DNA of 64,000 bases from Thermoplasmata archaeon (GTDB taxonomy: Archaea > Thermoplasmatota > Thermoplasmata > Halarchaeoplasmatales > Halarchaeoplasmataceae): assembly GCA_003552585.1 (NCBI GenBank), contig PUNK01000057.1:720-64719 (forward strand). The letters are read 5' to 3'. Positions 6,966 to 62,614 of the stretch are shown in pieces (the first letter of the stretch is position 1; the number at the start of each line of letters is the position of its first letter). Made by a program: the position numbers and the translations under genes. The notes below the pieces were generated by a model, which worked only from the letters and a program-made list of their open reading frames with translations, was not told the origin of the DNA and did not search any database.

Positions 6966-6966
6966 A

Positions 6967-7950
6967 TTAAATGAAGCTGGCCAAAACTAAGGGAAGTAAT
7001 ACTGTAGCGTCTCCTTCAACAGTGATCCTGTCTGCGTCTCCTTTGACCTTTCCCCACGAAACAGCTTCTCTGATGCGGGCGCCCGATAAAGAACCGTCAT
7101 ATTCCACGGCCGTGGTGATGTAAACAGCATATTCCAAGCCACCCCTGAACTGGTTCCACCAGATGGTATGATGTTTGGATATGCCTCCTCCTATCATAAG
7201 TGCTCCTGTTTTTTCACAAGGAAATATGATATCTGCTATCTCTTGCTGATCTTTCAACAGATTCAATGAGAAGTTTTTGTCGTTCTGCCAATACATCCAA
7301 AGTTGTGAGCCAAATGCCCCATCCAAGATGCCTGGAACGAAGATAGGTATTTCGTTTTTATAGGCCCAGTATAACAAGGAATCTTTATCATCTACACGTT
7401 TACCGAATTCCCATATAAGTTCACTTGGGCTAAGATTGTAACCTTTCTCTTCGATTATGTCTGTTAGTATGGGTTGCATGTTTTTTTCTAGAGTCTCCCC
7501 GTAAGAAGAGTTAGGTATGAAAATATTACCCAGTCTGTTAACTCCTTTTTTATGTAAATCATCATCATCAGCATCGAAGGCACCGTGATAATAATCTTCC
7601 CAAACCCGTGCAAGATCATGGTCTAATGTACCGCAAGTTGTGATAACTACATCAAATAATTCCTTCCTTAGAGCGTCCTTTATCACTCCCCTAGTACCTG
7701 TTGAAACTATACATGCTGGAAATGATAAGAAGTTAACACAATCATCGTTGAACATATTTTTTAGTACATCTCTAGCCAAGCCCACCTTCTTAGAGACGAA
7801 ACCCCCTGAATTCCAATATTGATCTATCAAATCTCTTACGTTAGTGGAACCTGATAATTCCATATCTTCTACTTTTCTTTTCTTCATTGTCTTTCCAGGA
7901 AACGATGGCATAATAAAAAGGTAAGGGTTTAGCTCACCTCGATTTTGCAA
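6967..7950 (-). CDS. dys: deoxyhypusine synthase
   Basis: MIGGGISKHH and other DHS family motifs; ~320 aa. Confidence 0.8.
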   Translation of the reverse strand: MQNRGELNPYLFIMPSFPGKTMKKRKVEDMELSGSTNVRDLIDQYWNSGGFVSKKVGLARDVLKNMFNDDCVNFLSFPACIVSTGTRGVIKDALRKELFDVVITTCGTLDHDLARVWEDYYHGAFDADDDDLHKKGVNRLGNIFIPNSSYGETLEKNMQPILTDIIEEKGYNLSPSELIWEFGKRVDDKDSLLYWAYKNEIPIFVPGILDGAFGSQLWMYWQNDKNFSLNLLKDQQEIADIIFPCEKTGALMIGGGISKHHTIWWNQFRGGLEYAVYITTAVEYDGSLSGARIREAVSWGKVKGDADRITVEGDATVLLPLVLASFI

Positions 7951-7972
7951 AGAATTAGATTTTTGTATTTGG

Positions 7973-8002
7973 CGTCCGACAGTTTAAAAAAATACGTCCG
8001 AC
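7973..8002. promoter_or_regulatory. TATA element tttaaaaaaata flanked by the direct repeat cgtccgac, in the divergent dys/ftsZ region
   Basis: seen directly; positioned ~35 nt upstream of the dys start on the minus strand. Confidence 0.3.
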
Positions 8003-8124
8003 GTTGAATATTGACATTATAGCCTCTGGGTTGCTTACTTTGGATGGCTAGTACTGTGCAAAGATATGACAAATAATAGAAAATGCTTAAATAGTTAAAG
8101 TCGATACTACATACACCAGAATGG

Positions 8125-9258
8125 ATGGGATTCGTCATGGAATCTATAATTAATGAAGCTCTAAAAAAGCATAAGAAGGAAGAAAAAATTGGGAAAGAAG
8201 ACAAACGAATAGAGAGTATGGAATCTGCACCAGAAGATGAAGAACTTAGAAAACTTGTAGATACACTAGAAGTTAAGATAAGGATTTTCGGTTGTGGAGG
8301 AGGAGGATCCAACACCATCGATCGTCTGACAGAGGAAGGTATCACTGGCGCGGAGTTGATAGCCTGTAATACCGATGCCAATCATCTTCTTCATACACAT
8401 GCTCAAAAGAAGGTTCTCATCGGAAAGAACCAGACAAGAGGATTGGGCGCTGGAGCTAGACCTGAGGTAGGAGAACAGTCTGCACTGGAGGCTAAAGAGG
8501 AACTTCAGAGATACGTGGACGGTTCAGATATTGTATTTATCACCGCAGGAATGGGCGGTGGCACAGGGACAGGTTGTGCTCCCGTGATAGCAGATATGGC
8601 CAAAGAAGAAGGTGCCTTGGTGATGTCAATAGTTACCATGCCGTTCGAAGGCGAAGGCCGGGAAAGGATGAACAACGCTCAACGAGGGCTGATGAAACTG
8701 GAAAGACATTGTGATACAACGGTTGTCATACCCAATGATAGACTTCTTGAATTGGTACCGAACTTACCTTTGGAAGCTGCCTTCAAGGTCGCAGATGAGA
8801 TACTGATGGAATCGATAAAAGGCATCACTGAAATCATCACCAAACCTGGATTGGTGAACCTAGACTACAATGACGTAAGAACGGTTATGGATGAGGGTGG
8901 TTTGGCAATGATAGGAATCGGCGATTCTGATGATCCGAATACCAGAGTAGAGGATGCAGTGTCTCAGGCAATAAATTCACCACTGTTAGGTGATATCGAT
9001 GTTAGCGAAGCCAAGGGAGCACTCATCAGAGTCATAGGTGGACAGGATATGACGGTAACCGAGGCACAAAGGGCAGCAGATCTAGTTAATGAAAAGATAT
9101 CGAAAGAAGCTAGAATAATCTGGGGTTGCAATGTTGAAGATGACATGCAAAATACGATCAAGATCATGTTAGTGATCACTAACGTGCATTCGGATACTGA
9201 AGAATTCGCAAAGATGTCTATGGGTTCTCTGGGTGACGATATAGACTTAGTCGGATGA
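8125..9258 (+). CDS. ftsZ: cell division GTPase FtsZ
   Basis: GGGGSN, GGGTGTG tubulin signature and T7 loop; ~45-aa charged N-terminal extension. Confidence 0.9.
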
Positions 9259-9307
9259 TGATACCACCAAAAATATAACACCCTTCTTTCCTTTTCTTTA
9301 CATATCT

Positions 9308-9904
9308 ATGATAGCTAAAGGAGCAGGTATCCCGCTTTCACTTGTTATATTATCCAGTATATGTGCAATGCTGCTCTATCTGATGTATGGTGGATTTTTT
9401 GTCTATCTCTCTTTGGCTTTTGTTTTGTTGACACTTTTTTTCATAATATTTTTTAGAGATCCTGAGAGAACAAATGCTGAAGGGATATTATCTCCAGCTG
9501 ATGGTCGGGTAGACGAATTAAAGAAAAAAAGGATTGAGGTATTCATGAATATAACGGATGTTCATGTAAATCGTTCCCCGGTATCAGGTAAGATCGCCAG
9601 TATTAAGTATATTCCTGGCAAGCATAGACCTGCTTTTTCCAGTTCAACGGGTTCAAATGAACGTCTGAAGATTAAGATAGAATCGGAAGATAAAGAGATC
9701 GTATTGACCCAAGTGGCGGGAGTATTCGCAAGACGTATCGTACCCTATGTAAAAGAAGGAGATTTTGTACAAAAGGGTGATAGGATAGGTATGATCCGTT
9801 TTGGCTCTAGGGTGATCTTGGAGTTTTCGCTTGATGTAGACTTTTCTGTTGAAAGAGGTCAAAAAGTCAAAGCTGCTGAAACATCTTTGGGGGTATGGAA
9901 GTGA
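9308..9904 (+). CDS. psd: archaetidylserine (phosphatidylserine) decarboxylase proenzyme
   Basis: FGS self-cleavage motif (MIRFGSRV) and N-terminal TM segment; operon with pssA. Confidence 0.75.
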   Translation: MIAKGAGIPLSLVILSSICAMLLYLMYGGFFVYLSLAFVLLTLFFIIFFRDPERTNAEGILSPADGRVDELKKKRIEVFMNITDVHVNRSPVSGKIASIKYIPGKHRPAFSSSTGSNERLKIKIESEDKEIVLTQVAGVFARRIVPYVKEGDFVQKGDRIGMIRFGSRVILEFSLDVDFSVERGQKVKAAETSLGVWK

Positions 9905-45654: not shown

Positions 45655-45801
45655 CTCATTACCTCCATATAATACACCTTATTACTCACGACTAAAAATA
45701 ATTTTTCATTGGAAAAAGATTTTCATGTGAAAAAGATTTTAGGCAGGTACAGAGAGCGGACTTTGATAATGATTTTAAACCCCTCCCTCTATACACTTAC
45801 G

Positions 45802-47472
45802 ATGAAAAGTGATGTGACGATAGCTCAGGAAGTGGATTTAGAACCGATCATTGACGTGGCCGCTAAAATAGGATTATCTGATAATGATATAGAGCAGTGG
45901 GGAAGCCACAAAGCAAAACTGACCTTGGATGCAATCAGCAAATATTGTAAGGGTAGTGGTGGGAAACTTATCCTAGTTACAACTATGACGCCCACTTCGG
46001 GTGGTGAAGGTAAAACAACGATAACCATAGGGCTAACCCAAGCACTATGGAGAAAAGGCATAAAGGCGATGCTCGGTATACGAGAACCTTCCATAGGACC
46101 TACTATGGGGATCAAAGGAGGGGCAGCTGGAGGAGGGTATTCACAGGTACTCCCCATGGAAGACATAAATCTTCATTTTACTGGTGATCTCCATGCCATC
46201 GGAACCGCCCACAACTTACTTTCTGCGATGGTTAACAACCATCTTCATAGGGGTAACAGATTGGATATAGATCCCAGGAAGATTGTCTGGCCGAGGGTTG
46301 TAGACATGAATGACAGAGCTCTTAGGAACACAGTCGTAGGATTAGGTGGAAGGATACACGGGATGCCCATGGAGAACTCATTCGGAATAACTGCAAGTTC
46401 AGAAGTGATGGCGGTTCTTTGTTTAACAGAAGGATTAAGCGAGTTAAAGGAAAGGTTGTCCCGTATGATAGTCGGTTACACCTTTGAGGGAGATGCGATC
46501 AGAACGAATGATGTCGGCGGGGTAGGTGCGATGGCTGCTTTGATGAAACATGCCATCAAACCCAACCTTGTTCAAACACTTGAAGGAGGACCAGCCTTTA
46601 TACACGGTGGTCCTTTCGCGAATATTGCTCACGGGACCAGCAGCTTAATATCCACTAAAGTGGGGATGAATCTTGCAGATTATTTTATAACTGAAGCAGG
46701 ATTCGGTTCAGATCTGGGTGCTGAAAAGTTTTTCAACATAGTATGTAGAGAGGGAGATCTAAAACCTGATGCAGTCGTGATGGTAGCCACCGTTAGGGCA
46801 CTTAAGAGACAAGGCGGTGTTTCAAAAAAAGATCTAGATAAAGAAAATGTTGGTGCGATGAAAAAAGGTCTATCTAACCTGTCAAAACACCTTGAAAACA
46901 TTCAACTATTCGGACTCCCGGTTGTGGTTGCGATAAATCGTTTCCCATCTGACACGGATAAAGAAATAGAGTACTTATCCAAGCTGTGTGAGAAAATAGA
47001 CATACCTCATGCGGTAGTAGAGGTACATGAAAAAGGAGGCGAGGGAGGACTAGAACTAGCTGATGAGCTATTAAAGATATGCCGATCAGAATCATCTAAT
47101 TTTAGCCCATTATATTCACTCAGTGAAAATCCGAGAGATAAGATATACGATATTTCTACCAAGATCTACGGTGCTGAAGATGTGGTGTATACACAGCAGG
47201 CAGCTAGAGACCTAAGGAGGATCCAACGTCACGATCTTGAAGATTTACCTATATGCATGGTAAAAACACAGTATTCTCTCTCTGATGATAGAAAACTCAA
47301 AGGAAGGCCTTCCGGATTCGAAATCAAGATACACGAAATCGGAGTGAACGCTGGGGCAGGTTTTCTTATACCGATGGCTGGAGATATAACAACTATGCCC
47401 GGCCTCCCATCTAGACCTGCTGCGGTGGATATTGATATTGATGAAGACGGAAAAATATCGGGGTTGTTCTGA
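45802..47472 (+). CDS. fhs: formate--tetrahydrofolate ligase
   Basis: PTSGGEGKTTITIGL and full-length FTHFS similarity. Confidence 0.9.
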   Translation: MKSDVTIAQEVDLEPIIDVAAKIGLSDNDIEQWGSHKAKLTLDAISKYCKGSGGKLILVTTMTPTSGGEGKTTITIGLTQALWRKGIKAMLGIREPSIGPTMGIKGGAAGGGYSQVLPMEDINLHFTGDLHAIGTAHNLLSAMVNNHLHRGNRLDIDPRKIVWPRVVDMNDRALRNTVVGLGGRIHGMPMENSFGITASSEVMAVLCLTEGLSELKERLSRMIVGYTFEGDAIRTNDVGGVGAMAALMKHAIKPNLVQTLEGGPAFIHGGPFANIAHGTSSLISTKVGMNLADYFITEAGFGSDLGAEKFFNIVCREGDLKPDAVVMVATVRALKRQGGVSKKDLDKENVGAMKKGLSNLSKHLENIQLFGLPVVVAINRFPSDTDKEIEYLSKLCEKIDIPHAVVEVHEKGGEGGLELADELLKICRSESSNFSPLYSLSENPRDKIYDISTKIYGAEDVVYTQQAARDLRRIQRHDLEDLPICMVKTQYSLSDDRKLKGRPSGFEIKIHEIGVNAGAGFLIPMAGDITTMPGLPSRPAAVDIDIDEDGKISGLF

Positions 47473-49667: not shown

Positions 49668-50963
49668 ATGTACATTTCAATAGATGATACGGATTCTAAG
49701 GATGGTATGTGCACCACATATCTAGCGACCGAACTGATCAAGGAGTTCAATGATCTATATCTGGTGGATCACCCAAGACTCGTGCGTTTAAATCCAAACG
49801 TACCTTGGAAAACGCGTGGGAACGGAGCAATTGTCCTTCATCTTGGTCAGGGAGGCAGAAAAAAAAGGAAGATAGGATATATCGATGAAGAGATCTATCT
49901 TTATGAAGGCGATAGTACATTTTTAAACGAAGCTTTAGAGCGAGCTACAGCAATCGTAGAAAAGTGGGCATGTGACTCTGAAGGAACGAATCCTGGCATC
50001 GTGATATCAAACCAAAGACCAGGGATCGAACTGTACAAAAAAGCTGTAAAAGATGTTGTTGAACTTACAGAGGTAATGGATATTTTAGATGGGGGAGAAT
50101 ACTCTTATAAAGGATATAAAAACAAAAGAGGTTTGATAGGTGCTACTTCTGCTCTATCTTGGGAACCTGATGACCATACATATGAACTGTTAACTTACAG
50201 AGAGGATGCGAGGTGGGGCTCTGAAAGAGATCTTAACGATGAGGATGTAAAAAGATTCGACATCGAAACATTATACACTTTTGATAGTTATGACCATGAA
50301 GAAAACATCCAGGCGATCGCCCCAAATTCTCCCTGTCCCGTTCTTTACGGAGTTAGAGGAGAAGAACCGTCAGAACTAATGAAAGCTTTGTCCATGATAG
50401 GTGGTGAACGAGTTGAGAGATGGTTGTTGTTTCTTACCAATCAGGCAACGGATGATCATGTTCAAAAACAGGTGATCGGTCGATTGAGACCATGGACCTC
50501 GTGTGATATAATTGGTGAAATTTCTCGTTCTCCATGGACCATAGAAGGAGGACACGTGTTTTTTGATGTCGATTACAACGGAAATACGGTAACCGCAGCG
50601 GCCTACGAGCCGACCAAAGGATTCAGAGACGTGGTAAAAAAACTGACCGATGGTGATAAAGTTCGAGTGATAGGCGGGGTGCGAAAAGACCCGATTACTG
50701 TCAATATTGAAAAAATCGAAATACTCGAATTGGCAGAGAAGAAGATAAAAAAAAGTAACCCAAAGTGTCCTGATTGTGGAAAGAGGATGTCTTCGATGGG
50801 AAAGGACGCTGGATATCGCTGTAAGAGATGCAGGATCAAAGCGGATGAAGACGAAGCAGAAATAGTTACGGTTGATAGGGATCTAGAGCAAAAATATTAT
50901 GAGACCCCTGTTGTGGCAAGGAGGCATCTTTCTAAACCGTTAAAGAGGGTTGAAAAGTTGTGA
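49668..50963 (+). CDS. tiaS: tRNA(Ile2) 2-agmatinylcytidine synthetase
   Basis: MYISIDDTDSKDGMCTTY TiaS N-terminal signature; C-terminal Zn ribbon CPDCG...CKRC. Confidence 0.85.
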   Translation: MYISIDDTDSKDGMCTTYLATELIKEFNDLYLVDHPRLVRLNPNVPWKTRGNGAIVLHLGQGGRKKRKIGYIDEEIYLYEGDSTFLNEALERATAIVEKWACDSEGTNPGIVISNQRPGIELYKKAVKDVVELTEVMDILDGGEYSYKGYKNKRGLIGATSALSWEPDDHTYELLTYREDARWGSERDLNDEDVKRFDIETLYTFDSYDHEENIQAIAPNSPCPVLYGVRGEEPSELMKALSMIGGERVERWLLFLTNQATDDHVQKQVIGRLRPWTSCDIIGEISRSPWTIEGGHVFFDVDYNGNTVTAAAYEPTKGFRDVVKKLTDGDKVRVIGGVRKDPITVNIEKIEILELAEKKIKKSNPKCPDCGKRMSSMGKDAGYRCKRCRIKADEDEAEIVTVDRDLEQKYYETPVVARRHLSKPLKRVEKL

Positions 50964-51010
50964 TTTATGGGCAAAAATTAATCTATAATGTATTTCCTAT
51001 CTATAGCTAG

Positions 51011-51271
51011 GTGAAATATATGGAAGAAAAGGTAGGAAGTGTATTCAAGTATTTTAGAAAACCAAAAGTTGCGGCGGTAAAAATAGAATCAGGCGAAGTA
51101 AAGATAGGAGACAAATTACGTTTTAAAGGAGAACATACTGATTTTGTTCAAGAGGTAAAATCTATGCAGATAGATATGGAGGAAGTCGATGAGGTCGCAG
51201 CTGGAGATGATGTTGGGATCAAGGTCGATCAAAGGGTGAGACCGAACGACGAAGTCTTTTTGGCAGAATAA
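51011..51271 (+). CDS. small beta-barrel protein resembling EF-Tu domain 2
   Basis: GEVKIGDKL...AAGDDVGIKV...NDEVFL pattern. Confidence 0.3.
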   Translation: MKYMEEKVGSVFKYFRKPKVAAVKIESGEVKIGDKLRFKGEHTDFVQEVKSMQIDMEEVDEVAAGDDVGIKVDQRVRPNDEVFLAE

Positions 51272-51277
51272 CTATCC

Positions 51278-52666
51278 TTATCCCGGATAATACTTCTCGA
51301 TCCATTTCTCTTCGATTCTCTTGAGTTCCCTATTTGGTATGGTAGTTAACAGTTCCCACGCTAAGTCAAGGGTTTCATCTATTGTTCTATCTTCGTCTTC
51401 CCCCTGGGCTATGAACCTCTCTTCGAATTGGTCTGCAAATTCTAGATAAGTTCTATCTCTTTCACTTAAAGCCTCTTCACCTACCACAGCAACCAGATCT
51501 CTCAATTCAAGTCCCTCGGCGTAGGTTGCGTAGAGCTGATTGCTCACGTCCATATGATCCTCCCTCGTCCTTTCTTTTCCGATCCCCTGCTGCATAAGGC
51601 GTGAAAGACTTCCGCCTGGGGTTATCGGTGGCCGTATACCCTTTCTGTGTAATTCTCTGGAAAATACTATCTGACCTTCGGTGATATACCCTGTTAGATC
51701 GGGTATAGGATGGGTGATATCATCATCGGGCATGCTCAAGATAGGGAGCATGGTTATCGAACCATCTCTACCTCGTATCCTTCCAGCTCTTTCATATATG
51801 CTTGCAAGATCGGTGTACATATATCCTGGATAACCTCTTCTTCCAGGGACCTCTTCTCTGGCCGCGGCTATTTCACGTAATGCCTCACAGTAATTCGTGA
51901 TATCCGTTAGTATCACCAGTACCTGCATCCCTTCTTCAAAGGCTAGATATTCTGCTGCAGTTAGGGCCATACGAGGAATAATGATCCTCTCAATAGCTGG
52001 ATCGTTAGCTAGGTTCAGGAACAGTACCGCTCGCTCAAGAGCCCCCGTTCTTTCGAAATCGTTGATGAAAAAGTTTGCTTCTTCCGAGGTGATACCCATA
52101 GCACAAAACACCACGGCGAACTCTTCTTCCTCTCCAAGGACTTTTGCTTGGCGGGCTATCTGAGCAGCTACACTGTTATGTGGTAGACCGCTGGCACTGA
52201 ACATGGGTAACTTTTGTCCTCTGACCAACGTGAACATACCATCTATCGTTGATATTCCTGTCTGAATAAATTCCCTTGGAAATTCTCTTGCTGATGGATT
52301 GATCGGATCTCCGTTTATGTTCCGCCTTTCTTCAGGTATGATATCCGGACTTCCATCTATCGGTTCACCGACCCCGTTGAAAACCCTGCCTAAAAGTTCT
52401 CGGGAAACCCCGAATTTCATCACTTCACCGGTGAACTGTACTGAAGTATCCTTTGTATCCAATCCACGGGTACCTGCAAAAACCTGTAAAACAGCTCTAT
52501 TGGAATCAACCTCTAATACCTGCCCAATTCTTTCTTCACCACTAGGTAGGCGAACCTTAGCGATCTCATTGAAAGCGACATCAGTCACGTCCTCGACTAC
52601 CATTAGAGGACCTGAGACCTCTACCACGTTCTTGTATTCTGTTCTCTTGGATACTTCACTTTCCAT
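51278..52666 (-). CDS. atpB: A-type ATP synthase subunit B (start ATG at 52666 with GGAGG SD; ORF track TTG/GTG start at 52693)
   Basis: full-length similarity to A/V-ATPase B; [11 protein letters not shown] start. Confidence 0.9.
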
Positions 52667-52667
52667 C

Positions 52668-55061
52668 TTAATCATCCTCCATAAACGATTCAAATCCCTC
52701 GTTCATCTTCATCTCAATGTGATCGAATCTTTCTTCCCATTTATCTGAAGGAACGTTAGACATCCTACTTAGATCTTCAACAACATCCATCGCCACTATA
52801 TCATCTACTGAAACGCCCTTTTCCACTGCATCCATCCCTCTTTCGTAGAACTCCATCATGATTTCGATCATCCTGAACTGCTTTTCAGGGTCGCAGTAGG
52901 TATCCACATCGTGGAAGGCGTTCTGCTGCAGGAAGTCTTCTCTGATGACACGTGCAGCTTGAAGGGCAAATCTATCGCTTTTAGGAAGAGCATCCGGGCC
53001 GACGAGTTGAACGATCTCCTGAAGCTCCGACTCCTTTTCCAGCAGACGCATGCTCTCTCTCCTGAGTTCATGCCATTTTTCATTAATATTCTCGTTCCAC
53101 CATCCTTTAACCGAATCTAGATATAGAGAATAAGAGCGAAGCCAGTTGACTGCTGGGAAATGACGTTTGTTTCTTAATTCTACATCCAAGGCCCAGAAAA
53201 CCTGCACGATCCTTAGGGTGTTCTGGGTCACTGGTTCTGAGAAATCTCCACCTGACGGACTGACTGCACCGATGACTGAAATCGAACCATCTTCTCCATT
53301 CAAAAGCTCACATATACCTGCTCTTTCGTAAAAAGAGGCTAAAGATGATGCTAGATATGCGGGATAACCTTCCTCACCCGGCATCTCTTCTAATCTACCT
53401 GAAATCTCTCTTAATGCCTCTGCCCATCTAGATGTTGAATCAGCCATAAGTGCAACGTTGTATCCCATATCTCTATAATACTCTGCCAACGTGATCCCAG
53501 AGTACACAGATGCTTCTCTTGCAGCTACGGGCATATTACTTGTATTTGCAATTAAAACTGTACGCTTCATAAGCGGTTCCCCAGTACGAGGGTCCTCCAA
53601 CTCAGGAAAATCCCGTAGTACTTCAGTCATCTCGTTCCCTCTTTCACCACAACCGACGTAGACGACGATATCCGCATCGCTCCACTTAGCTAATTGGTGC
53701 TGGATCACCGTATTATGTAATATCATGGGTGCATTACCGCCTACAAAATTGTGAGTTCCAGGAACGGTAAGATCGTATACATCTTTTGTTTCATCTTTCA
53801 ATTCTACAGATGTAACAGGATCTGGGAGGAAATGATCTAAGTGGTTATGCTCATCTCTTGAAATTCCCACCCTTTCTTCACTCTGTTCATCTCCTTTTGT
53901 TTTATTGATCGCATTCTTCAAAGTGTCTTCTCTAGGTGCTAATAGGGTGTCTCCACTTTGTAGCTTACCAGCCGGTTGCTCTTTGATTTGCTGATCTGAT
54001 GTTAGGACGAAGAGTTTGTGAACCGGTGTCACTTCCACTTCCCGTCCCGAATCGGTTGTGACCACTACAGTACTATCTGTTTTACCTTTATAGATGCATG
54101 TCGCATGCTTTTTAATTATCTTTCCATCATCCATCGAAAGGATGTCCAAAGGATCGTTTAATTCTATCAACTCTTCGTGATCATCAAGGTTTGAATCAAT
54201 TCTCTTGATGCCTTGATCTTTGTACTCTTCGAAAATTTCTTCGATCGCTTTTTTTGTGCCATCGGCTAAGATCACCGGAGTATCTCCGGTTATACATTTG
54301 CCGGTCCCGAACCCCCCGGGTATGGCGGCGGTACCGCCTTTAGCGAGTGGAAAGAATGTATCCAGGACACGCTGTCCGGTGATAAGTAGTTCACCCGGTG
54401 CTTTCTTTCTCCCGATCGGACGTCTTATCCTTACTGGCCACCGCTGTTTCATCTTGATCTCTTCTTCACCGGTGGAAGTTTTTACACGAGCGATAGTATC
54501 TGTTATTGTGTATTCTCCTTCATTGACTATCTCTTCGATTTTCCCGCTGATACCATGAGGCACCATAACTTTGTGTTCTACAACTTTTGTTTCAGGCACA
54601 GTCCCGATGATATCACCTGCTGAAACTTCATCACCCTCTTTAACATCAGGAATAAACTTCCAGTGCTTTTCCTCGTCTAATGGTGGTACATCAACACCAC
54701 GAAGTATGAAATCTCCTGCCTCTGATTTTATGGCCTCCAAAGGACGTTGGATACCGTCATATATCTGCTGTATGAGTCCTGGACCGAGTTCTGCGGACAA
54801 GGGGTCTCCGGTTCGTTTTACGGGTTCTCCAGGCTTCAATCCACCCGTCTCTTCGTAAACTTGGATTGTAGCTACATCTCTCTCTAAGCCTATTATCTCT
54901 CCGATCAGACCAGCTTCACCTACCTCTACTACTTCATACATCTCTGCCCCTTTTAGGTTTCCAGCCTCTACTACAGGTCCAGCGATCCTGTTTATCTCTC
55001 CGACTTGTTCTTTCTTAGGCTTAGAGATACGCTCTATCCGCTTTTCAACATCTTCTTCCAT
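52668..55061 (-). CDS. atpA: A-type ATP synthase catalytic subunit A, interrupted by an in-frame mini-intein
   Basis: 797 aa vs ~585 expected; P-loop GGFGTGK|C...HN|T split. Confidence 0.9.
53712..54296 (-). mobile_element. 195-aa mini-intein in the atpA P-loop (no homing endonuclease domain)
   Basis: starts [13 protein letters not shown] (block A), TPVH (block B), ends [23 protein letters not shown] (blocks F/G) followed by +1 Thr of GKT. Confidence 0.8.
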
Positions 55062-55062
55062 A

Positions 55063-55395
55063 TCAACTGTCCTCCTTTAATGTGATATCTATTCCAACTG
55101 CACGTTTTATTTTCTCTTCAAGTGGGTCTTCTTTTCCTTTTATCGGTCCTTTAGCATCCGGCAGCTCTACTATTATCGGGTAAAGTTCCTTACCCTCGAT
55201 GAGTTTGTTAAGTTCGAAACGTATAGACTCGGCAACGTCCTCCGAGATGAGAACAACAGCAACGTCACCAGACTCAACAAATTCCGTCAGAAGTCTGAGG
55301 GTTAAGTGCTCGTCCTCGTGAACGTGGGATTCATTAACACCTGCAAGTGAAAAACCTTCTGCGAAATACTCTCCACCTATAGCGACTATCTTCAT
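55063..55395 (-). CDS. atpF: A-type ATP synthase subunit F
   Basis: [20 protein letters not shown] typical subunit F. Confidence 0.85.
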
Positions 55396-56528
55396 ACTCT
55401 ATCCTCCATCACTAACAACGCTTCGATGCTCTCAGACGGCATCTTTTCCCTTAAACCTCGGCTCAGTATATTGAGGTTCCTAAGCTCTACTTCCTTACCC
55501 ACCAAAAAGCGAAGTAGGGGACCCACACTGAGCACGTTCTGACTCATCACTTCCGAGGCCATCTGGATCATCTTTTTATCCAGGTATTTTTCTATCTCAA
55601 ACGGTCCCATGGTAGCAGCGTCACGTCTGATCTCCGCGTAGGAAGTGCCTTCCAATTCAACCAGTGCTTCTTCTAAGCCCGATGATTCAACCATACTTTC
55701 AAGCTTCCATCGTTCCAGCTCTCTGCCCGATGGGAGTAGAGCTTTCTTTAACTGCTCCTTATCCACCCCTTCTCTGAGACCCCTTATCAATATCTTCAAG
55801 TTCTTAACGTCAACGTACCTGCCGAAGAAGTACTTGACCGGTGGTCGTTCTTCGGATTCTACATTTTTAACTGATTTTTGGATACGCTGGTAAACGTATC
55901 TATCGAAGGACACTTCCAAAGAGTACATGTCTTCAGTAGGATCTTCACCCTGCAGCGGCTCTTCGAAACCCGCCTCCTTCAAAATGTCGATGACCTCCTG
56001 GAGATCACGAGCGTTCACCAAACTATCGATCACTTTCTCGTCCACCCTCCTTACGGGGATCAATTTTTCACTCATATCTTCTCTAGAATCTCCAGTCATT
56101 TTGGACTTCAGCGCACGTTTTGCCATCCTTACGTCGAACCGAAGTAGCCATGCACCGGCGAACTCCTTGGCGGAAAGGGGACAGTTTCTGTACGCCCTCC
56201 TCATGAAGGACATGGTTTCACTTTCCAGCTCCCTTTCCAGTTCGTTCTGGTCCAGGGTAGCTTCTTTGGAAAGGTCATATCCTCTATCCTCCAGTTCCTG
56301 ATATACTTCATTAAGATTGTTTCCTTCGACCAAAGGTGAGAGTACGCTGTTACTCAAAAAGGGATTGCCGATGGCTCGGTATTTGGCGTTAGGATAAGTA
56401 AAACTAGCTATCGATAGTAACACTTTGAAATAACTCATAACCAGCAGTACGACTATAAGTAATGAGCCGCCGACTATGACCAACACGAAGTTGGTGATTC
56501 CTAGGGAATCGATAACCCCTTCTAACAC
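55392..56528 (-). CDS. atpC: A-type ATP synthase subunit C (d-like), with an unusual ~30-aa hydrophobic N-terminal extension if the operon-abutting start is used
   Basis: YPNAKYRAIG...; size and position in operon. Confidence 0.75.
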   Translation of the reverse strand: MLEGVIDSLGITNFVLVIVGGSLLIVVLLVMSYFKVLLSIASFTYPNAKYRAIGNPFLSNSVLSPLVEGNNLNEVYQELEDRGYDLSKEATLDQNELERELESETMSFMRRAYRNCPLSAKEFAGAWLLRFDVRMAKRALKSKMTGDSREDMSEKLIPVRRVDEKVIDSLVNARDLQEVIDILKEAGFEEPLQGEDPTEDMYSLEVSFDRYVYQRIQKSVKNVESEERPPVKYFFGRYVDVKNLKILIRGLREGVDKEQLKKALLPSGRELERWKLESMVESSGLEEALVELEGTSYAEIRRDAATMGPFEIEKYLDKKMIQMASEVMSQNVLSVGPLLRFLVGKEVELRNLNILSRGLREKMPSESIEALLVMEDRV

Positions 56529-57110
56529 TCAGATTTCCTCCTTAAACATCATCTCAGATATCTCTTTTCGGATATCTTTTTTCATACGTTCTAGATTGGA
56601 TTCGAAGGTAAGGTCTATGAACGAGCCGCTTTCAGAACGTGCTTTGATGCCCCCCACCGATATAAGATCGGCTTTTACTTTAACCGAAGGAGCGATCTTT
56701 TTAGCCATCTCACTCACCAGCTCTTTACTCTCTTCATTACACGATACCGTGATATCCTTTCCCAATACTTTAACGCATTTGCCTATGGCTTGTCGGATAT
56801 AAACTTTATAATCCTCCGCCTGTAGAGAACCAAGTTTTTTCAAAGCCTCTTGGAATATCTCATCTATCATCTCCTCCCTAACTTCAAGCTCACGCTTACG
56901 GGCGTCCAGCTTAGCTTGGGAGCGGATGCGGTTCTTCAACGTCCTCAGCTCTCTGTCGCTCTCTTTTTTGAGTTCGTCGAGTTTTCTCTCCTTCTCGGAG
57001 ATTATCTTCTCCTTTTCAGACTCAGCCTTATCACGGGCTCTCTTGGCGATGATCTTCGCCTTCCGTTTTGCGTCCGTTCTTATCCGCTTAACCAATTTAT
57101 CTACCGACAT
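56529..57110 (-). CDS. atpE: A-type ATP synthase subunit E
   Basis: 193 aa, charged N-terminal helix, position in operon. Confidence 0.8.
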   Translation of the reverse strand: MSVDKLVKRIRTDAKRKAKIIAKRARDKAESEKEKIISEKERKLDELKKESDRELRTLKNRIRSQAKLDARKRELEVREEMIDEIFQEALKKLGSLQAEDYKVYIRQAIGKCVKVLGKDITVSCNEESKELVSEMAKKIAPSVKVKADLISVGGIKARSESGSFIDLTFESNLERMKKDIRKEISEMMFKEEI

Positions 57111-57119
57111 CTTAAGCCC

Positions 57120-60100
57120 TCACATAAACCCAAAGAACACTATTATAAATATCGCTATCAACAGACCGAAGATAGCAAAGGTCTCCGACATAACGCTGAA
57201 TATCATGCCCTTGCCGAATACCTCCTCTCGTTTTGTCACAGCGGCTATGGCGGAACCCGAGGTTATACCCTGACCGACTCCGGATACACCGGCTATACCT
57301 ATGGCAAGCCCGGCGCCGACGGCGGCCACACCCATGCCTACGGTAAGATCAGTATCTCCACCCAGCATGCCGCTGAATACCATGAGCAGTATTCCGATCA
57401 AAAGCCCGTATATAGCCTGAGTTTCGGGAAGTACGGAGAATACCATACCCCTTCCGAACATCTTCTCGTTCTCCGTCACCGTTGCAACTCCACTGGCTGC
57501 GGCGATACCTTGGCCTATACCTGAAAGACCTGCGATGCCAACCGCTAAACCTGCACCTACGCCAACCATCCCAATTGCTAGGTCCAATGGAGGTCCTTCG
57601 CCCAATAAACCGCTGAATATCATAAGTAATATGGCGATCAACAGCCCGTATATAGCCTGAGTTTCGGGAAGTACGGAGAACACCATGCCCCTGCCGAACA
57701 ATTCTTCTTTTTCAGCCACACAACCTATACCGCTGGCTGCGGCGATACCCTGGCCTATACCGGATAGGCCGGCGATACCTACGGCTAAACCTGCACCTAT
57801 AGCTGTCAACCCTATAGCGTAGCCTGATTCACCAAGGACGACTTCAGGGAAGTCTCCTGCTAATAACCCGCTGAATACCAGTAATAGTATGGCTATCAGT
57901 AAACCATAGATGGCCTGGGTTTCCGGTAAAACGGAGAATACCATTCCTTTGCCGAACATCTTTTCATCCTCGGCCACTGTTGCGATACCACCGGAAGCGG
58001 CGATACCTTGGCCGATACCTGAAAGGCCTGCGATGCCCACGGCTAACCCGGCTCCCATACCTACTATACCCATGGATGCTTCCATGGTAACAGCATCTCC
58101 CAGCATACCTGAGAAAACCATCAACAGTATGGCCAACAGTAGTCCGTATATCGCCTGTGTTTCCGGAAGCACCGAGAATACCATACCCTTTCCGAATAGT
58201 TCCTCTTTTTCAGCCACCGTCGTAACACTGCTGGCTGCGGCGATACCTTGACCTATACTGGACAACCCTGCTAGACCTACAGCGAATCCGGCACCAACGG
58301 CCATCATGCCTATGGCTAGACCGGAATCCCCTGCCATTATGGGGTCGCCCTCACCTGCCAGTAAACCTGTAAATATCATCAAAAGTATACCTACGAGAAG
58401 TGCATAGATCGCCTGGGTTTGAGGTAGTGCCTGGAATACCAATGATTTACCGAATTTGTCCGGATCCTCGGTCACTATACCCGCACCCGCCGCACCTACT
58501 ATACCCACCCCTATGCCGGCTCCCATACCGGCTATACCTACGGCTAAACCTGCTCCCACACCGACCAATCCCAAAGATGATTCGATTGAAGTCGGGTCTC
58601 CCAACATGCCTGTGAAAATTAGTAGTAATATAGCAATAAGTAATCCGAATATAGCGAAGGTCTCTGACATCACACTAAAGATCATTCCTTTTCCGAATAC
58701 TTCACTTCGTTTTGCAACAGCGGGTATAGATGCCCCCGAAGTTATCCCCTGACCCACACCCGAGATACCAGCAATGCCTACTGCTAAACCAGCCCCTATC
58801 GCTATCATGCCCAAACCGTGACCTTGATCACCCAACAACGCAGTAGGATAATCCCCTGTCAACAGGCCTGAGAAGACCATCAAAAGGATAGCTATGAGTA
58901 AACCGTATATCGCCTGTGTCTCCGGAAGCACTGAAAAAACCATGCTCTTCCCGAACATCTTTTCGTCGTCGGTAACGGTGGCTATACCACTTGCCGCTGC
59001 GATGCCCTGGCCGATACCGGATAGCCCTGCTATCCCCACGGATAATCCTGCACCGACTCCAACCAGACCTAGGCCTATGTGTAGTGGTTCTCCATCACCC
59101 GCCAATAAACCGCTGAATATCATCAATAATATGGCGATCAACAAACCGTATATCGCCTGGGTTTCCGGAAGTACCGAGAACACCATACCTTTACCGAATA
59201 TCTCTTCATCTTCGGCCACACAGCTTATACCGCTGGCCGCAGCGATGCCTTGGCCGATACCGGATAGTCCTGCGATGCCCACCGCCAAGCCGGCACCGAT
59301 AGCTATCAAGCCCAAGGCGTAACCGGAGTCTCCAGCCATTATAGATGCCGGGTCTCCGGCTAGAAGGCCGGTGAACACCATCAGTAATATAGCTATGAGT
59401 AAACCGTAGATGGCTTGTGTTTCCGGTAGCACGGAGAATACCATGCCCTTACCGAACAGCTCCTCCTTCTCGGCTACTGAAGATATACCGCTTCCCGCTG
59501 CGACTCCTTGGCCTATGCCTGAAAGCCCGGCCACTCCGACCGCGATGCCGGCGCCTATACCTACCATGCCTAGGCCTAATCCGTATTCTCCCAGCATGAA
59601 GGCGTGAATATCTCCCCCTAGGAGACCAGTGAACACCATCAGCAATATTGCTATCAATAAACCGTATATTGCCTGTGTTTCCGGAAGTACGGAGAATACC
59701 ATACCTTTACCGAACAATTCTTCCTTCTCTGAATAAGCGGCTACACTACCGGAGGCGGCTATACCCTGCCCGACAGCGGATAGGCCAGCGATCCCCACCG
59801 CCAAACCGATACCCAACGAGATTATACCTATGGGTAGGGGAACGTAAGCTCCGTCACCGAGAACTCCGGTGAATAGTAACAGTAAAACGGCTATGAGTAA
59901 ACCGTATATAGCTTGGGTTTGAGGTAGTGCCTGGAACACCAAACATTTACCGAATTTATCCGGACTCTCGGCAACGGTACCCGCACCCGCCGCACCGGTT
60001 ATACCGACACCGATGCCTGCACCCATCCCTGCGATCCCAACGGCAAGCCCTGCCCCTATGGCAGTCAAATAAGTTCCACGCTCGTCCCTTTCAACGATTA

Positions 60101-60482
60101 TTTCGATCGAATGTGAATAAGATACATCATCATCCGTTATCTCAAGGGTAACCGTGTAATTCCCCAGCTCGTATTCACGTGTTACATTTTCGGCTATAAG
60201 CTCTTCGATATCCATCGGTCCTAGTTCATATCCCTCTCCATCTCCAAAGTCCCATGAGGCATTAAATGGACCATCAGGATATTCATCCACATCCAAATGG
60301 ATACCGAATTTTATTTCCACTGGCTCATCTTCATCAACGGTGTATATCCTGGCCCTTTCTTCCACAACATCTCCATCAACCATTATCTTTAGCTCGTTTT
60401 CTCCCTCTGCTATGACTGAAGGAAGAAGGGCAGATACGATGATAAGTAAGATGAAAACTATGATCAACCTGTGCCCCTTCAT
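57120..60482 (-). CDS. atpK: A-type ATP synthase proteolipid subunit K as a single 12-hairpin fusion, preceded by a signal peptide and PKD-like domain
   Basis: aa 1-25 signal peptide; aa ~30-135 PKD motif (WDFGDG...YTVTLEITDDD); 12 repeats of ...GxGxAxGxAGxxxxGQGIAA...FGKGMVFSVLPETQAIYGLLIAILL. Confidence 0.85.
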   Translation of the reverse strand: MKGHRLIIVFILLIIVSALLPSVIAEGENELKIMVDGDVVEERARIYTVDEDEPVEIKFGIHLDVDEYPDGPFNASWDFGDGEGYELGPMDIEELIAENVTREYELGNYTVTLEITDDDVSYSHSIEIIVERDERGTYLTAIGAGLAVGIAGMGAGIGVGITGAAGAGTVAESPDKFGKCLVFQALPQTQAIYGLLIAVLLLLFTGVLGDGAYVPLPIGIISLGIGLAVGIAGLSAVGQGIAASGSVAAYSEKEELFGKGMVFSVLPETQAIYGLLIAILLMVFTGLLGGDIHAFMLGEYGLGLGMVGIGAGIAVGVAGLSGIGQGVAAGSGISSVAEKEELFGKGMVFSVLPETQAIYGLLIAILLMVFTGLLAGDPASIMAGDSGYALGLIAIGAGLAVGIAGLSGIGQGIAAASGISCVAEDEEIFGKGMVFSVLPETQAIYGLLIAILLMIFSGLLAGDGEPLHIGLGLVGVGAGLSVGIAGLSGIGQGIAAASGIATVTDDEKMFGKSMVFSVLPETQAIYGLLIAILLMVFSGLLTGDYPTALLGDQGHGLGMIAIGAGLAVGIAGISGVGQGITSGASIPAVAKRSEVFGKGMIFSVMSETFAIFGLLIAILLLIFTGMLGDPTSIESSLGLVGVGAGLAVGIAGMGAGIGVGIVGAAGAGIVTEDPDKFGKSLVFQALPQTQAIYALLVGILLMIFTGLLAGEGDPIMAGDSGLAIGMMAVGAGFAVGLAGLSSIGQGIAAASSVTTVAEKEELFGKGMVFSVLPETQAIYGLLLAILLMVFSGMLGDAVTMEASMGIVGMGAGLAVGIAGLSGIGQGIAASGGIATVAEDEKMFGKGMVFSVLPETQAIYGLLIAILLLVFSGLLAGDFPEVVLGESGYAIGLTAIGAGLAVGIAGLSGIGQGIAAASGIGCVAEKEELFGRGMVFSVLPETQAIYGLLIAILLMIFSGLLGEGPPLDLAIGMVGVGAGLAVGIAGLSGIGQGIAAASGVATVTENEKMFGRGMVFSVLPETQAIYGLLIGILLMVFSGMLGGDTDLTVGMGVAAVGAGLAIGIAGVSGVGQGITSGSAIAAVTKREEVFGKGMIFSVMSETFAIFGLLIAIFIIVFFGFM
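57123..60062 (-). repeat. 12 tandem ~240-260-bp coding repeats (c-subunit hairpins) organised as a duplicated 6-hairpin super-repeat
   Basis: recurrent nucleotide blocks such as gtttccggaagtacggagaataccat at ~240-bp intervals; hairpins 1/7 and 6/12 are pairwise most similar. Confidence 0.8.
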
Positions 60483-62614
60483 TCACTCCCCTCCTTGCTC
60501 GTGGTGAATCTTCTTTCTGGTTTGAAAGGTTTGAATTCCGTACCACCGCCTTCATAGAAGTAACCGAAGAACTCTACGTACTGCAGCCTGAGAGAATGTA
60601 CGAAGGAACCCAAGGCCTGAAGTGAAGCATTGATGATATGTCCTCCAACCAGAACTACAAGGGAAAGTATATAGAAGGGATATACGGGATCGATAAATCC
60701 CAGTCCGCCGATCACCATAATAGAAATTCCAGCACCCATTATTTTTTTATCTTTTGAGAGTGTGGAACGTATGAGTAGAACGGAACCAATAGCTACCACT
60801 ACCAAAGCCATCATCGTTCCCATCGACCCGTCTGCTACAAGATATGCAAGCACGTTGACCGTTAAAGCGATCCCTGCCGTGGCAAGGCCGAGGGCAAGAA
60901 TCCTGGCAAAGGAGAGAAAATCACCCAAAAAACCCGTTAATGCGAAGAATGAAAGTCCTTTAGCCCTGACCACCAGAAGGCCAAGACCAACAACGCTCAT
61001 TATAGCAGCAATGGTGTAAACTGTTCCTGTGAAATCGTACCAGCCAAAGAGCATACCCGATAGGAGTATGAAGCCACCCGGCTGCAGAAGCCACCATGAA
61101 ACGTTCTCGAGTAAGACATGCCTGTAATTCTTCCGTCTTATATGTTGTATCAGGGATAGGACGAGACCTATGTTTATGTATGCCAGCCCTATCAGTAGAG
61201 ATATTATCAAGAGAATCAGCGGTCCATCACCCTCTAGGGTATCAAGAAGAAGTGGTGGATCAAGACCGAAGCGGCCCAAGAGATTAAGATATTCTTCTCT
61301 ATTTGGGCCGAGATATCCTCCCTGGAGAATCCCGAAGATGAAAGTTGATAATCCTGCCGCCAACAGTATCAAAGAAAAGTCCCTTGTACCCTTCTCTATC
61401 TTACCTATGCCGTAATATAAAACTAGAGAAACCGCTATTATCAAACCACCATAAACCGCATCGCCCAACATCAGACCAAAAAAGATAACGAAGGCAGGTG
61501 CAATTATAAGAGTTGGATCGACCTCGTCATATCTTGGAGGTGCGAACATCCTCGTGAGCAGTTCGAAGGGTTTCAAAAGCTTAGGATTATCTAAAGATAC
61601 AGGCACATAATCAGGGTCTCGAGGTTCCTCAGAAACCAATAAACCGTATCCTCTGGACTGCTTTTTTACCTCTCTCTCTACCTGTGGCACCAGGTCTTCA
61701 GGAGCCCACCCTTTGATGATCGCGGTCGTATCGGTCCGTCCGAACTGCTGGTAGGCTTCCATTTTGTTACGGAATATCTCAAGCTCTTCTTCAAGCACAA
61801 AAAAATCGAGTTGATGCTCTTTTTTTTGTTCCACCAATGAGGTGAAGAGATCCTCTTCCTCCTTCTTCATCTCCCTTATTCGCTTATCTAATTTGTCTAG
61901 TACGTCGGAAGGGATACCTTTTAATTGACCGAAGTCAAAGATTTTTACATTTGTCTCCCTCAGCACCATATCCAATCTTTTACGATCTCTTATATAAGCT
62001 CCAGCGATGGCGATGTATTCCTTTTCTTTTCTCCTTTGAAGAATAAGGTGGGAAGTATCTATTTCTGATAGTTTTCTCTTTAGTAGAGTAGTATTTTGTG
62101 TCTTTCCTACACGATATACCGTGTATGGTGAATCACCGATATAGCTGAGATCGATATCTATATCGATCATCTGTTGAACACTTCTGCGGATAGATTCAAA
62201 CTCTTCGATCTTTTCTCTCTTTTTGTTGAGTTCTCTGCTCAGTTTAAGAATATTTTTTCCCACGGAATCCATGAGATCATCTATCTCTTCTTTTAGTGCT
62301 GAAAAATCTTTCATTTCTCTTTTTACAGGTTCGATCTCCTTTGGAAATATGAGATCTTTGATGCCTTCTTCCTTGACTTCTATACTGCTAAAAACGTCTT
62401 GTACGGAGGTAAGTTTCATCTCATACTCGGTACAATCGGATAGATTTTTGTGTATAGAACCATCGTCTATTAAACTGCTCAAATCAGTATCCCTTTCTAC
62501 GTTAGATATCTCTATTTCACCCATGGAATGAAGACCTTCTACAACTTCGTCCAAGTAAGAATCGTGTACGATTATAGTGACGTCCTTCATCCTCTTGGGG
62601 AAGAGTATGTTCAT
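60479..62614 (-). CDS. atpI: A-type ATP synthase subunit I (a-subunit)
   Basis: 711 aa, N-terminal coiled cytoplasmic domain, C-terminal polytopic domain with ARILALGLA (conserved Arg). Confidence 0.85.
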   Translation of the reverse strand: MNILFPKRMKDVTIIVHDSYLDEVVEGLHSMGEIEISNVERDTDLSSLIDDGSIHKNLSDCTEYEMKLTSVQDVFSSIEVKEEGIKDLIFPKEIEPVKREMKDFSALKEEIDDLMDSVGKNILKLSRELNKKREKIEEFESIRRSVQQMIDIDIDLSYIGDSPYTVYRVGKTQNTTLLKRKLSEIDTSHLILQRRKEKEYIAIAGAYIRDRKRLDMVLRETNVKIFDFGQLKGIPSDVLDKLDKRIREMKKEEEDLFTSLVEQKKEHQLDFFVLEEELEIFRNKMEAYQQFGRTDTTAIIKGWAPEDLVPQVEREVKKQSRGYGLLVSEEPRDPDYVPVSLDNPKLLKPFELLTRMFAPPRYDEVDPTLIIAPAFVIFFGLMLGDAVYGGLIIAVSLVLYYGIGKIEKGTRDFSLILLAAGLSTFIFGILQGGYLGPNREEYLNLLGRFGLDPPLLLDTLEGDGPLILLIISLLIGLAYINIGLVLSLIQHIRRKNYRHVLLENVSWWLLQPGGFILLSGMLFGWYDFTGTVYTIAAIMSVVGLGLLVVRAKGLSFFALTGFLGDFLSFARILALGLATAGIALTVNVLAYLVADGSMGTMMALVVVAIGSVLLIRSTLSKDKKIMGAGISIMVIGGLGFIDPVYPFYILSLVVLVGGHIINASLQALGSFVHSLRLQYVEFFGYFYEGGGTEFKPFKPERRFTTSKEGSE

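Follow-up and report, generated by a model that had tools for sequence, protein, structure and literature searches.

The DNA considered here is a stretch of 64,000 nucleotides (hereafter the window) from contig PUNK01000057.1 of assembly GCA_003552585.1, positions 720 to 64,719 of the forward strand, and its minus strand encodes a protein of 1120 aa in the position of subunit K, the proteolipid of the membrane rotor. The product is probably the rotor of a Na+-type A1AO ATPase/ATP synthase of an uncultured Thermoplasmata archaeon, with twelve transmembrane hairpins in one chain of which two lack the ion-binding carboxylate. The gene is organized as follows.

57120..60482, minus strand: gene for subunit K (proteolipid/rotor), 1120 aa, with signal peptide, PKD ectodomain and 12 hairpins (open reading frame list and Pfam)
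60408..60482, minus strand: signal-peptide-like segment, aa 1-25, read from the sequence as MKGHR, a hydrophobic run and VIA/E
60084..60395, minus strand: PKD-type beta-sandwich ectodomain, aa ~30-133, with the WDFGDG signature
59859..60068, minus strand: hairpin 1, carboxylate-less, V159 replacing the helix-1 Gln and Q188 the Glu
58860..59828, minus strand: hairpins 2-5, each with the full Q...LPETQAIY and with E268, E354, E440 and E521
58602..58811, minus strand: hairpin 6, E607 kept, MSETFAIF, in which F609 and F612 replace the Gln and Tyr of the next site
58359..58568, minus strand: hairpin 7, the second carboxylate-less hairpin (V659, Q688), predicted to form an internal dead site with hairpin 6
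57363..58310, minus strand: hairpins 8-11, full sites E774, E854, E940 and E1020, of type 4/5 and not 2/3
57123..57332, minus strand: hairpin 12 (C-terminal), E1100 kept, MSETFAIF with F1102 and F1105, predicted upstream half of a seam dead site with hairpin 1

The ATP-synt_C family of Pfam (PF00137) matches 12 stretches of the protein (E=8e-202; 654 bits against a cut-off of 24), and these hairpins, along with the operon slot between subunits I and E, place it among the A/V-type proteolipid subunits K/c; a Pfam match to DNA_polI_exo1 lacks any significant stretch and was taken as spurious. The carboxylate borne by the second helix of a hairpin in such proteins is Glu in ten of the 12 and Gln in hairpins 1 and 7 (in order, Q188, E268, E354, E440, E521, E607, Q688, E774, E854, E940, E1020 and E1100), both Gln codons being CAA (59919-59921 for Q188 and 58419-58421 for Q688). 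Partial carboxylate loss of this kind is normal among multi-hairpin K proteins. The two Gln hairpins share the motif LPQTQAIY, and hairpins 6 and 12 share MSETFAIF. An earlier note on this DNA had described 12 hairpins, two of them without carboxylate, with Gln for Glu at aa 188 and 688 and SETFAIF in hairpins 6 and 12, and in these respects it read the array correctly, the alignment showing Q and not E at both positions. The span that it assigned to the rotor (57123-60062) falls within one uninterrupted open reading frame (57120-60482, minus strand) and omits the first 140 residues of the protein, comprising the signal peptide and the PKD domain.

The arrangement of these variants becomes intelligible by comparison with NtpK from Enterococcus hirae, in which Na+ is liganded by the L61 carbonyl, T64, Q65, Q110 and E139, with Y68 located beneath the ion (PMC2359735). 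Hairpins 1 and 2 together align to NtpK residues 21-154 (E=8e-18), and L186, T189, Q190, Y193, Q239 and E268 thereby fall on L61, T64, Q65, Y68, Q110 and E139, respectively, which means that each site lies between two hairpins: hairpin i supplies the Leu carbonyl, Thr, Gln and Tyr, and hairpin i+1 the helix-1 Gln and the Glu. With all 12 interfaces tabulated in this manner, ten are complete (L/T/Q/Y facing Q/E), while interfaces 6/7 and 12/1 read M/T/F/F facing V/Q, with four of the five side-chain positions lost (F, F, V and Q). The ligand set of Na+-binding c/K subunits (E. hirae / I. tartaricus type) is thus complete at ten interfaces and absent at 6/7 and 12/1, and the suggestion that the array bears a Na+-type motif is upheld by the alignment. 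The two defective interfaces are, to judge from their residues, dead and unable to bind an ion. SETFAIF had been regarded as a variant in its own right, a view that the interface table does not support; it reads instead as the upstream half of a dead site to which LPQTQ and GIGVG contribute the downstream half, and the two oddities are, on this mapping, a single feature. Hairpins 1 and 7 keep their own Thr, Gln and Tyr because those residues serve the next, live site, as do T189, Q190 and Y193 of hairpin 1 for the site of hairpin 2.

Both halves of the dead site have counterparts in NtpK (PDB 2BL2), the best solved match to the protein and one in which every Na+ ligand is conserved in hairpins 1 and 2. 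Its N-terminal hairpin, which lacks the carboxylate, is the nearer counterpart of hairpins 1 and 7 (scores of 132 and 126, against 96 and 94 with the C-terminal hairpin), whereas hairpins 6 and 12 show the opposite preference and lie closer to the C-terminal hairpin. A two-hairpin stretch of the AlphaFold2 (AF2) model superposes on 2bl2_A with a template-modelling (TM) score of 0.89 and a root-mean-square deviation of 1.5 Å, the PDB matches in the fold search being one- or two-hairpin chains, and the model of the whole chain, with 24 transmembrane helices, has a mean predicted local distance difference test score (pLDDT) of 89.6 and a predicted TM score (pTM) of 0.88. NtpK is nevertheless a double hairpin, ten copies of which form a 20-hairpin ring with every second site dead, whereas two of 12 sites are dead in the window protein and a single chain is proposed to make the ring. 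A closer parallel to the order of hairpins is provided by AtpK from Methanocaldococcus jannaschii (P0305), likewise a subunit of an A1AO operon, which presents LPQTQ (without the helix-1 Gln), LPETQAIY and PETFAIF, the three types of the window protein in the same order. This layout, with a Q-type hairpin first, an ETF-type hairpin last and E-type between, occurs twice in the window protein. AtpK of M. jannaschii differs in having only three hairpins with two carboxylates, in contributing several copies per ring and in lacking both signal peptide and PKD domain, whereas 12 hairpins and two first-and-last pairs are joined here in one chain. Since the Gln hairpin is common to hairpin 1 of M. jannaschii AtpK and the N-terminal hairpin of NtpK, it is an old type, and the carboxylates were not recently lost in this gene.

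Arrays of repeats are a classic hazard of sequence assembly, and the NCBI annotation of a related contig (locus L002) calls only the last three of its hairpins as subunit K (P0262), such that a misassembled tandem repeat or a decaying pseudogene has to be considered; misassembly had also been named in the earlier note as an outcome that would overturn its reading. This explanation is barely credible and was rejected, as the reading frame is uninterrupted, the repeats have diverged, the same architecture recurs across sequencing projects and the ratio of non-synonymous to synonymous substitution (dN/dS) is ~0.03. A repeat-finding tool returned ten in-register DNA copies at 61-82% identity (61-83% overall), the hairpin cores are pairwise 42-83% identical in DNA, and the direct repeat comprising hairpins 1 and 7 extends over 191 nt at 75% identity with a spacing of 1500 nt; at only 61-83% identity, collapse or expansion during assembly is no issue. 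Genes with 12 hairpins are present in four further independent assemblies from different projects, represented by P0002 (locus L001 encodes the same product), P0003, L003 (partial) and L002. The Q/ETF pattern of the window recurs in the first three, which are 85-90% identical, while L002 differs in its second half. Against the gene of L001, dN/dS is 0.02-0.04 in every hairpin block for which dS can be estimated, including those of hairpins 1 and 12, with dS being saturated; for hairpins 6 and 7 dS is too saturated to compute, and dN (0.083 and 0.050) is as low as in the other blocks. Two observations on the public records may be added. The gene of L002 (JAWOAU010000041.1, locus 5986-9339) appears to be mis-called, as P0262 (243 aa, 'V-type ATP synthase subunit K') covers just the last three hairpins of its open reading frame. 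The closest K gene (90% identical, partial) lies with archaeal E and C subunit genes on the 5-kb contig of L003 (PWFW01000126.1), which is filed under a genome bin of the bacterial Halanaerobiaceae and is most likely mis-binned.

The encoded protein is probably the whole membrane rotor, its chain closing into a ring of 12 hairpins (24 helices) with hairpin 12 packed on hairpin 1. The principal argument comes from the termini: the defects of the N-terminal hairpin (V, Q) and those of the C-terminal hairpin (F, F) are complementary halves of one site, and so these two hairpins, distant in the chain, should touch. In the set of full-length proteins that was scored, the states of the first and last hairpins co-occur, apart from a few cases (P0038, P0241); Methanopyrus proteins have E first and ETQ last, and nearly all other multi-hairpin K proteins have Q first and ETF or ETY last. 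Furthermore, a count of 12 or 13 hairpins is seen in more than 40 full-length single-chain K proteins, drawn from Methanopyrus, DPANN and other archaea, and the solved ring of Thermus thermophilus is built from 12 one-hairpin chains (132 chains in 11 entries). In the clade that carries an N-terminal ectodomain, which Pfam calls as PKD in most members, the unit sizes are 3, 4, 6 and 12. Trees of the flanking subunits I and C support the attainment of 12 hairpins twice independently from 6-hairpin ancestors. A profile of the hairpin, run over all six frames, found no second K-type open reading frame in the window.

With 12 hairpins and one K gene in 64 kb, the protein resembles AtpK from Methanopyrus kandleri, which is described, in the citation given by PMC2359735, as a deduced monomeric rotor of 13 hairpins (Lolkema and Boekema 2003). 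That protein, one polypeptide of ~1000 aa that is thought to form the whole ring, is ~51% identical (P0006, P0011). It bears Glu and a full site in all 13 hairpins, with neither dead sites nor an N-terminal domain, unlike the window protein, where the site is not complete in every hairpin and two lack Glu. The V/A-ATPase of T. thermophilus (PDB 5GAR and others) provides a prokaryotic A/V-type precedent for the 12-hairpin ring, but its ring consists of twelve separate one-hairpin chains per entry, all with the carboxylate.

Several considerations weigh against closure by a single chain. The high pTM fits a ring without proving one, and AF2 may also impose a ring by analogy. The size of V/A-type rings varies, the K10 ring of E. 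hirae having 20 hairpins, which leaves the argument from divisors of 12 suggestive only. Outside the PKD clade there is a 9-hairpin relative (P0032), from a lineage with near-identical repeats that could collapse in assembly, and another K gene may be present elsewhere in the genome, since the scan covered the 64-kb window. An alternative is a ring of more than one chain. Two copies of the 12-hairpin protein, or four of the 6-hairpin form in relatives, would then make up 24 hairpins with 20 sites and move some 6.7 Na+ per ATP, a high ratio such as would suit a synthase working on a weak ion gradient. Hairpins 12 and 1, with their complementary defects, could pack head to tail across two chains no less than inside one, the unit sizes of 3, 4, 6 and 12 also divide 24, and 20-hairpin rings have been solved for E. 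hirae and eukaryotes. Nonetheless, no V/A-type ring above 20 hairpins occurs among the solved structures matched, the single-chain K proteins of many lineages cluster at 12-13 hairpins, the ring size of T. thermophilus, and two independent routes stop at exactly 12; a ring of two chains is accordingly quite improbable, and the 12-hairpin ring of one chain is preferred.

A 6-hairpin unit is a plausible source of the gene. About 35 protein clusters and eight genome loci of Thermoplasmata feature a K protein with signal peptide, ectodomain and six hairpins, invariably in the pattern Q-E-E-E-E-E(TF), which is the commonest form in sister Thermoplasmata lineages and is encoded by the only K gene of its operon. 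When the window hairpins were classed against the positions of these 6-hairpin proteins (300 bootstraps), hairpins 1-6 fell one to one on positions 1-6 (300, 295, 185, 270, 295 and 269 of 300), and hairpins 7 and 12 on positions 1 and 6 (298 and 300). For hairpins 8-11, by contrast, the assigned classes are 5 (191, weak), 5 (254), 4 (294) and 5 (299), giving a second half of 1-(4/5)-5-4-5-6 from which type-2 and type-3 hairpins are absent. The linkers are similarly out of step, measuring 11, 17, 17, 12 and 17 in the first half and 17, 11, 17, 11 and 11 in the second, with those preceding hairpins 8 and 10 both resembling the linker between positions 3 and 4. The earlier proposal that the gene arose by duplication of a 6-hairpin unit, with pairing of hairpins 1-7 through 6-12, is therefore partly retained. 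Such an origin is plausible given the common free-standing 6-hairpin genes, and pairs 1-7 (78% aa identity), 4-10 (93%) and 6-12 (77%) are clear best matches; pair 5-11 (87%) ties with 5-9, 2-8 (74%) and 3-9 (80%) are not best pairs, and the second half is no plain copy. By the identity matrices and the bootstraps against 6-hairpin proteins, the duplication holds for hairpins 1, 4, 5 and 6 only, and the divergent classes and linker lengths imply that conversion or rearrangement followed. The simplest reading would be a head-to-tail fusion of two 6-hairpin units, each with the M. jannaschii-type layout of a Q hairpin first and an ETF hairpin last, whereby the second signal peptide and PKD domain were lost and a 4-5 tract subsequently overwrote the 2-3 pair of the second half. 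As synonymous divergence among the paralogous hairpins is at or beyond saturation, these events must be old.

Among the relatives, the number of live sites is more variable than the frame that carries them, as 12-hairpin genes are found with 9 (L002), 10 (the window) or 11 (L010). The gene of L002 is the sister of the window gene in trees of the flanking subunits I and C, and its hairpins 1-6 are 94-100% identical to those of the window, but its second half reads Q-E-ETF, Q-E-ETF, which leaves three dead sites and nine live ones (6+3+3). Hairpins 6 and 9, 7 and 10, and 8 and 11 of that protein are only 77-80% identical in DNA, and the copying of the dead-site module is thus old rather than artefactual. 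The next outgroup, L001 with L003, shares the pattern of the window, and ten sites are thus ancestral in this clade and nine derived. L010 (=P0004), by contrast with the whole-unit duplication of the window, L001, L002 and L003, reads Q, ten E and ETF, that is, 12 hairpins with one Gln hairpin and 11 sites; it is nested among different 6-hairpin lineages, and most of its inner hairpins are of type 3/4, a sign that it arose independently through internal amplification. The ectodomain of L010 (PULU01000158.1, locus 6001-9558) is longer, at 180 aa, and poorly conserved. The same first and last hairpins are present in 3- and 4-hairpin forms, some with an ectodomain; the Q-first/ETF-last pattern is found in most of the 3-hairpin (about 63) and 4-hairpin (29) clusters recovered, and in a Thermoplasmata genome one such gene (L013) has those for subunits I, E and C as neighbours. 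A search of a representative library added mostly fragments, apart from the 4-hairpin forms. The dead site would accordingly behave as a module of two hairpins that may be retained, deleted or duplicated, the latter two yielding 11 or 9 sites.

It might be objected that the chain is indeed the whole ring but that the number of sites has no adaptive meaning, the internal dead site being a frozen relic of the welding of two protomers, kept only since its two hairpins must still pack. Nearly every multi-hairpin K protein has a dead seam, whatever its habitat; the dN/dS values show constraint yet cannot separate packing from function; and the change from 12 to 10 sites is a small one. On the other hand, gene conversion among hairpins is active in the K family, the interior of L010 is free of dead sites, and L002, the sister of the window gene, gained a third. 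The seam is therefore open to erasure and multiplication, but the window, P0002, P0003 and L003 have all retained it, which renders a mere relic unlikely. A more ambitious reading of the clade, in which a fixed 12-hairpin ring has its ion/ATP ratio shifted at short evolutionary range by the copying and erasing of dead-site modules while a glycosylated external PKD domain turns with the ring or caps its pore, is put forward tentatively, as something less than an even chance; it would provide 9, 10 or 11 sites in the single chains, and 8, 9 or 10 if 3-, 4- and 6-hairpin units assemble to 12.

Other long-chain proteolipids were encountered in the course of this survey. A lineage without the ectodomain, from Euryarchaeota metagenome-assembled genomes (P0010, 967 aa; P0032, 723 aa), is modular in the same way: its hairpins are grouped 6+3+3, each Gln hairpin being preceded by ETH instead of ETF, and a 9-hairpin version exists too; the long, almost exact protein repeats of P0010 mean that its hairpin count may be affected by assembly. 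P0072-P0076, from metagenome-assembled genomes of the Asgard phylum Promethearchaeota, are single-chain proteolipids of ~1140 aa with 15 hairpins, each with a VLAEAL-type carboxylate helix. P0078 and P0079, from Candidatus Vampirococcus lugosii (Gracilibacteria; CPR), are named ATP synthase subunit c at the source and have 750 aa and 10 hairpins of two alternating types, with Glu in every hairpin of P0078, the one that was read.

The N-terminus of the K protein is the other feature that sets this family apart. Residues 1-25 have the appearance of a signal peptide that is presumably cleaved, and AF2 assigns a pLDDT of only ~30 to aa 1-29. The domain that follows scores 28.7 bits against Pfam PKD_4 when isolated (cut-off of 27), with homologues reaching 68.6 bits, although in the scan of the full-length protein it stays below the cut-off at 23.3 bits. 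Its assignment as a PKD domain (Pfam PF18911 / PF00801) is borne out by both score and beta-sandwich fold: the AF2 model places beta strands at residues 31-132, followed by ~2 linker residues and then helix 1 of hairpin 1, and Foldseek matches the ectodomain to the PKD structure 4xed. The domain contains three N-X-S/T sequons in the window protein, and over 35 family members the ectodomains hold 168 against 42 expected, a four-fold enrichment, with sequons nearly absent from the hairpins (15 in 17,066 residues); this fits an exposed, glycosylated ectodomain outside the cell. It evolves fast (dN of 0.51 against L001) and is found on the 3-, 4-, 6- and 12-hairpin K proteins of many Thermoplasmata. 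In known c-ring structures the first helix of the hairpin is in the inner ring and starts at the outer membrane face, and the PKD domain should thus lie above the central pore and revolve with the rotor. As to its role, capping of the pore and guidance of the insertion of a very long multi-spanning chain are both guesses. The literature search brought up no account of a rotor with a fused PKD ectodomain, which is weak evidence of absence, as most subscription journals lay outside the search.

The gene resides in an A1AO ATPase operon of the order H-I-K-E-C-F-A-B, all on the minus strand (Pfam and open reading frame list), and the order around K is identical in L008 and L002. The start codon of K overlaps the stop codon of subunit I (ATGA), and a 116-aa open reading frame without a Pfam match precedes subunit I in the position of subunit H. 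The genes identified by Pfam are as follows.

60479..62614, minus strand: subunit I (stator a subunit), directly upstream of K (V_ATPase_I)
51278..57110, minus strand: downstream operon genes E-C-F-A-B
56529-57110, minus strand: subunit E
55392-56528, minus strand: subunit C
55063-55395, minus strand: subunit F
52668-55061, minus strand: subunit A with an intein
51278-52693, minus strand: subunit B

Subunit A has 797 aa, with an intein at aa ~263-450 that is inserted within the Walker A motif (GTGK before it, C...HN as its own limits, T after it). The equivalent subunit of L008 (636 aa) is too short to hold an intein of that size, and that of L002 (1125 aa) probably has a larger or a second one. 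The gene for subunit D does not lie downstream of subunit B; the region of the window at 49668-51278 is occupied, on the opposite strand, by a gene for a TiaS-like tRNA-modifying enzyme, and this central-stalk subunit must therefore be encoded elsewhere. A gene for formate-tetrahydrofolate ligase is located near the operon (window 45709-47472, plus strand), in agreement with the formate metabolism predicted for related soda-lake Thermoplasmata.

In the working model that follows from the one-chain ring, a full turn would move 10 Na+ per 3 ATP (3.33 Na+/ATP), a ratio that holds if the chain is the whole ring, for which the support is comparative. The two dead sites would lie half a turn apart, and when the stator Arg faces the uncharged hairpin at a dead site the rotor would have to turn through 60 degrees, in place of 30, from one ion transfer to the next. 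A rotor with an isolated dead site is known to work in the F/V-hybrid c ring of Acetobacterium woodii (PDB 4BEM), which has ten Na+ sites, as the window model does, and assembles nine one-hairpin c2/3 subunits with one two-hairpin c1, a chain that is among the structural matches of the K model; it is, however, an F-type ring of 11 hairpins made from ten separate chains and three genes.

Some archaeal enzymes with a Na+-type motif use both ions, and motifs do not fully fix the choice of ion, so that an H+-coupled or dual-ion enzyme has also to be weighed. At ten interfaces, nonetheless, the protein has the complete set of five side-chain ligands known from the E. hirae Na+ site, and a proton cycle is disfavoured in the habitat of the relatives, with its high pH and molar Na+; coupling to H+, alone or along with Na+, is accordingly rather unlikely, and Na+ is preferred, even if the motif is no proof of Na+ use. 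The direction of operation is not readable from sequence. The earlier note had linked the scarcity of carboxylates to a pump-biased enzyme, an older view that is no longer safe, as an enzyme whose c subunit is of the V type produces ATP at 90-150 mV (PMC9171764). Enzymes with fewer sites can likewise still synthesize ATP. The dead site retained within the chain might also be a neutral remnant of the fusion and not a tuned gear. The relatives belong to the KTK 4A Thermoplasmata, which come from hypersaline soda-lake sediments and are predicted to ferment, and ATP-driven export of Na+ is therefore a reasonable main role; in a fermentative haloalkaliphile the enzyme would probably serve mainly as an ATP-driven Na+ pump.

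Multi-hairpin archaeal K proteins with lost carboxylates (M. jannaschii) and the single-chain rotor (M. kandleri) are already known. What is new is the combination of a single-chain rotor with dead sites, together with the 4-, 6- and 12-hairpin grades, the ectodomain on a rotor and the shift of site number among close relatives on a constant frame. The K proteins of this family are unnamed in databases or annotated only as 'PKD domain-containing protein', and no description of any of these new points, of 6- or 12-hairpin K subunits or of Saliniplasma / KTK 4A ATPases was found in the literature, again weak evidence in a search that most subscription journals lay outside. A single-chain rotor with defined, asymmetric dead sites would be convenient for structural and single-molecule studies of stepping, because each hairpin is individually addressable by mutation. 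If the reading of the clade is true, the PKD domain on its rotor would correspond, in a prokaryote, to the luminal accessory domains that eukaryotic V-ATPase rings carry.

In rotary ATPases, the count of ion sites on the ring determines the ratio of ions to ATP, and how and why this ratio changes in evolution is a long-standing question that has usually been studied across distant organisms with rings of different size. For 9, 10, 11 and 12 sites, the equilibrium sodium-motive force amounts to ~173, 155, 141 and 130 mV, respectively, at an assumed phosphorylation potential of 50 kJ/mol, a spread over which single steps in site number are physiologically meaningful. These near relatives appear to hold the ring at 12 hairpins and to vary only the live sites, and the family thus looks like a natural gearbox.

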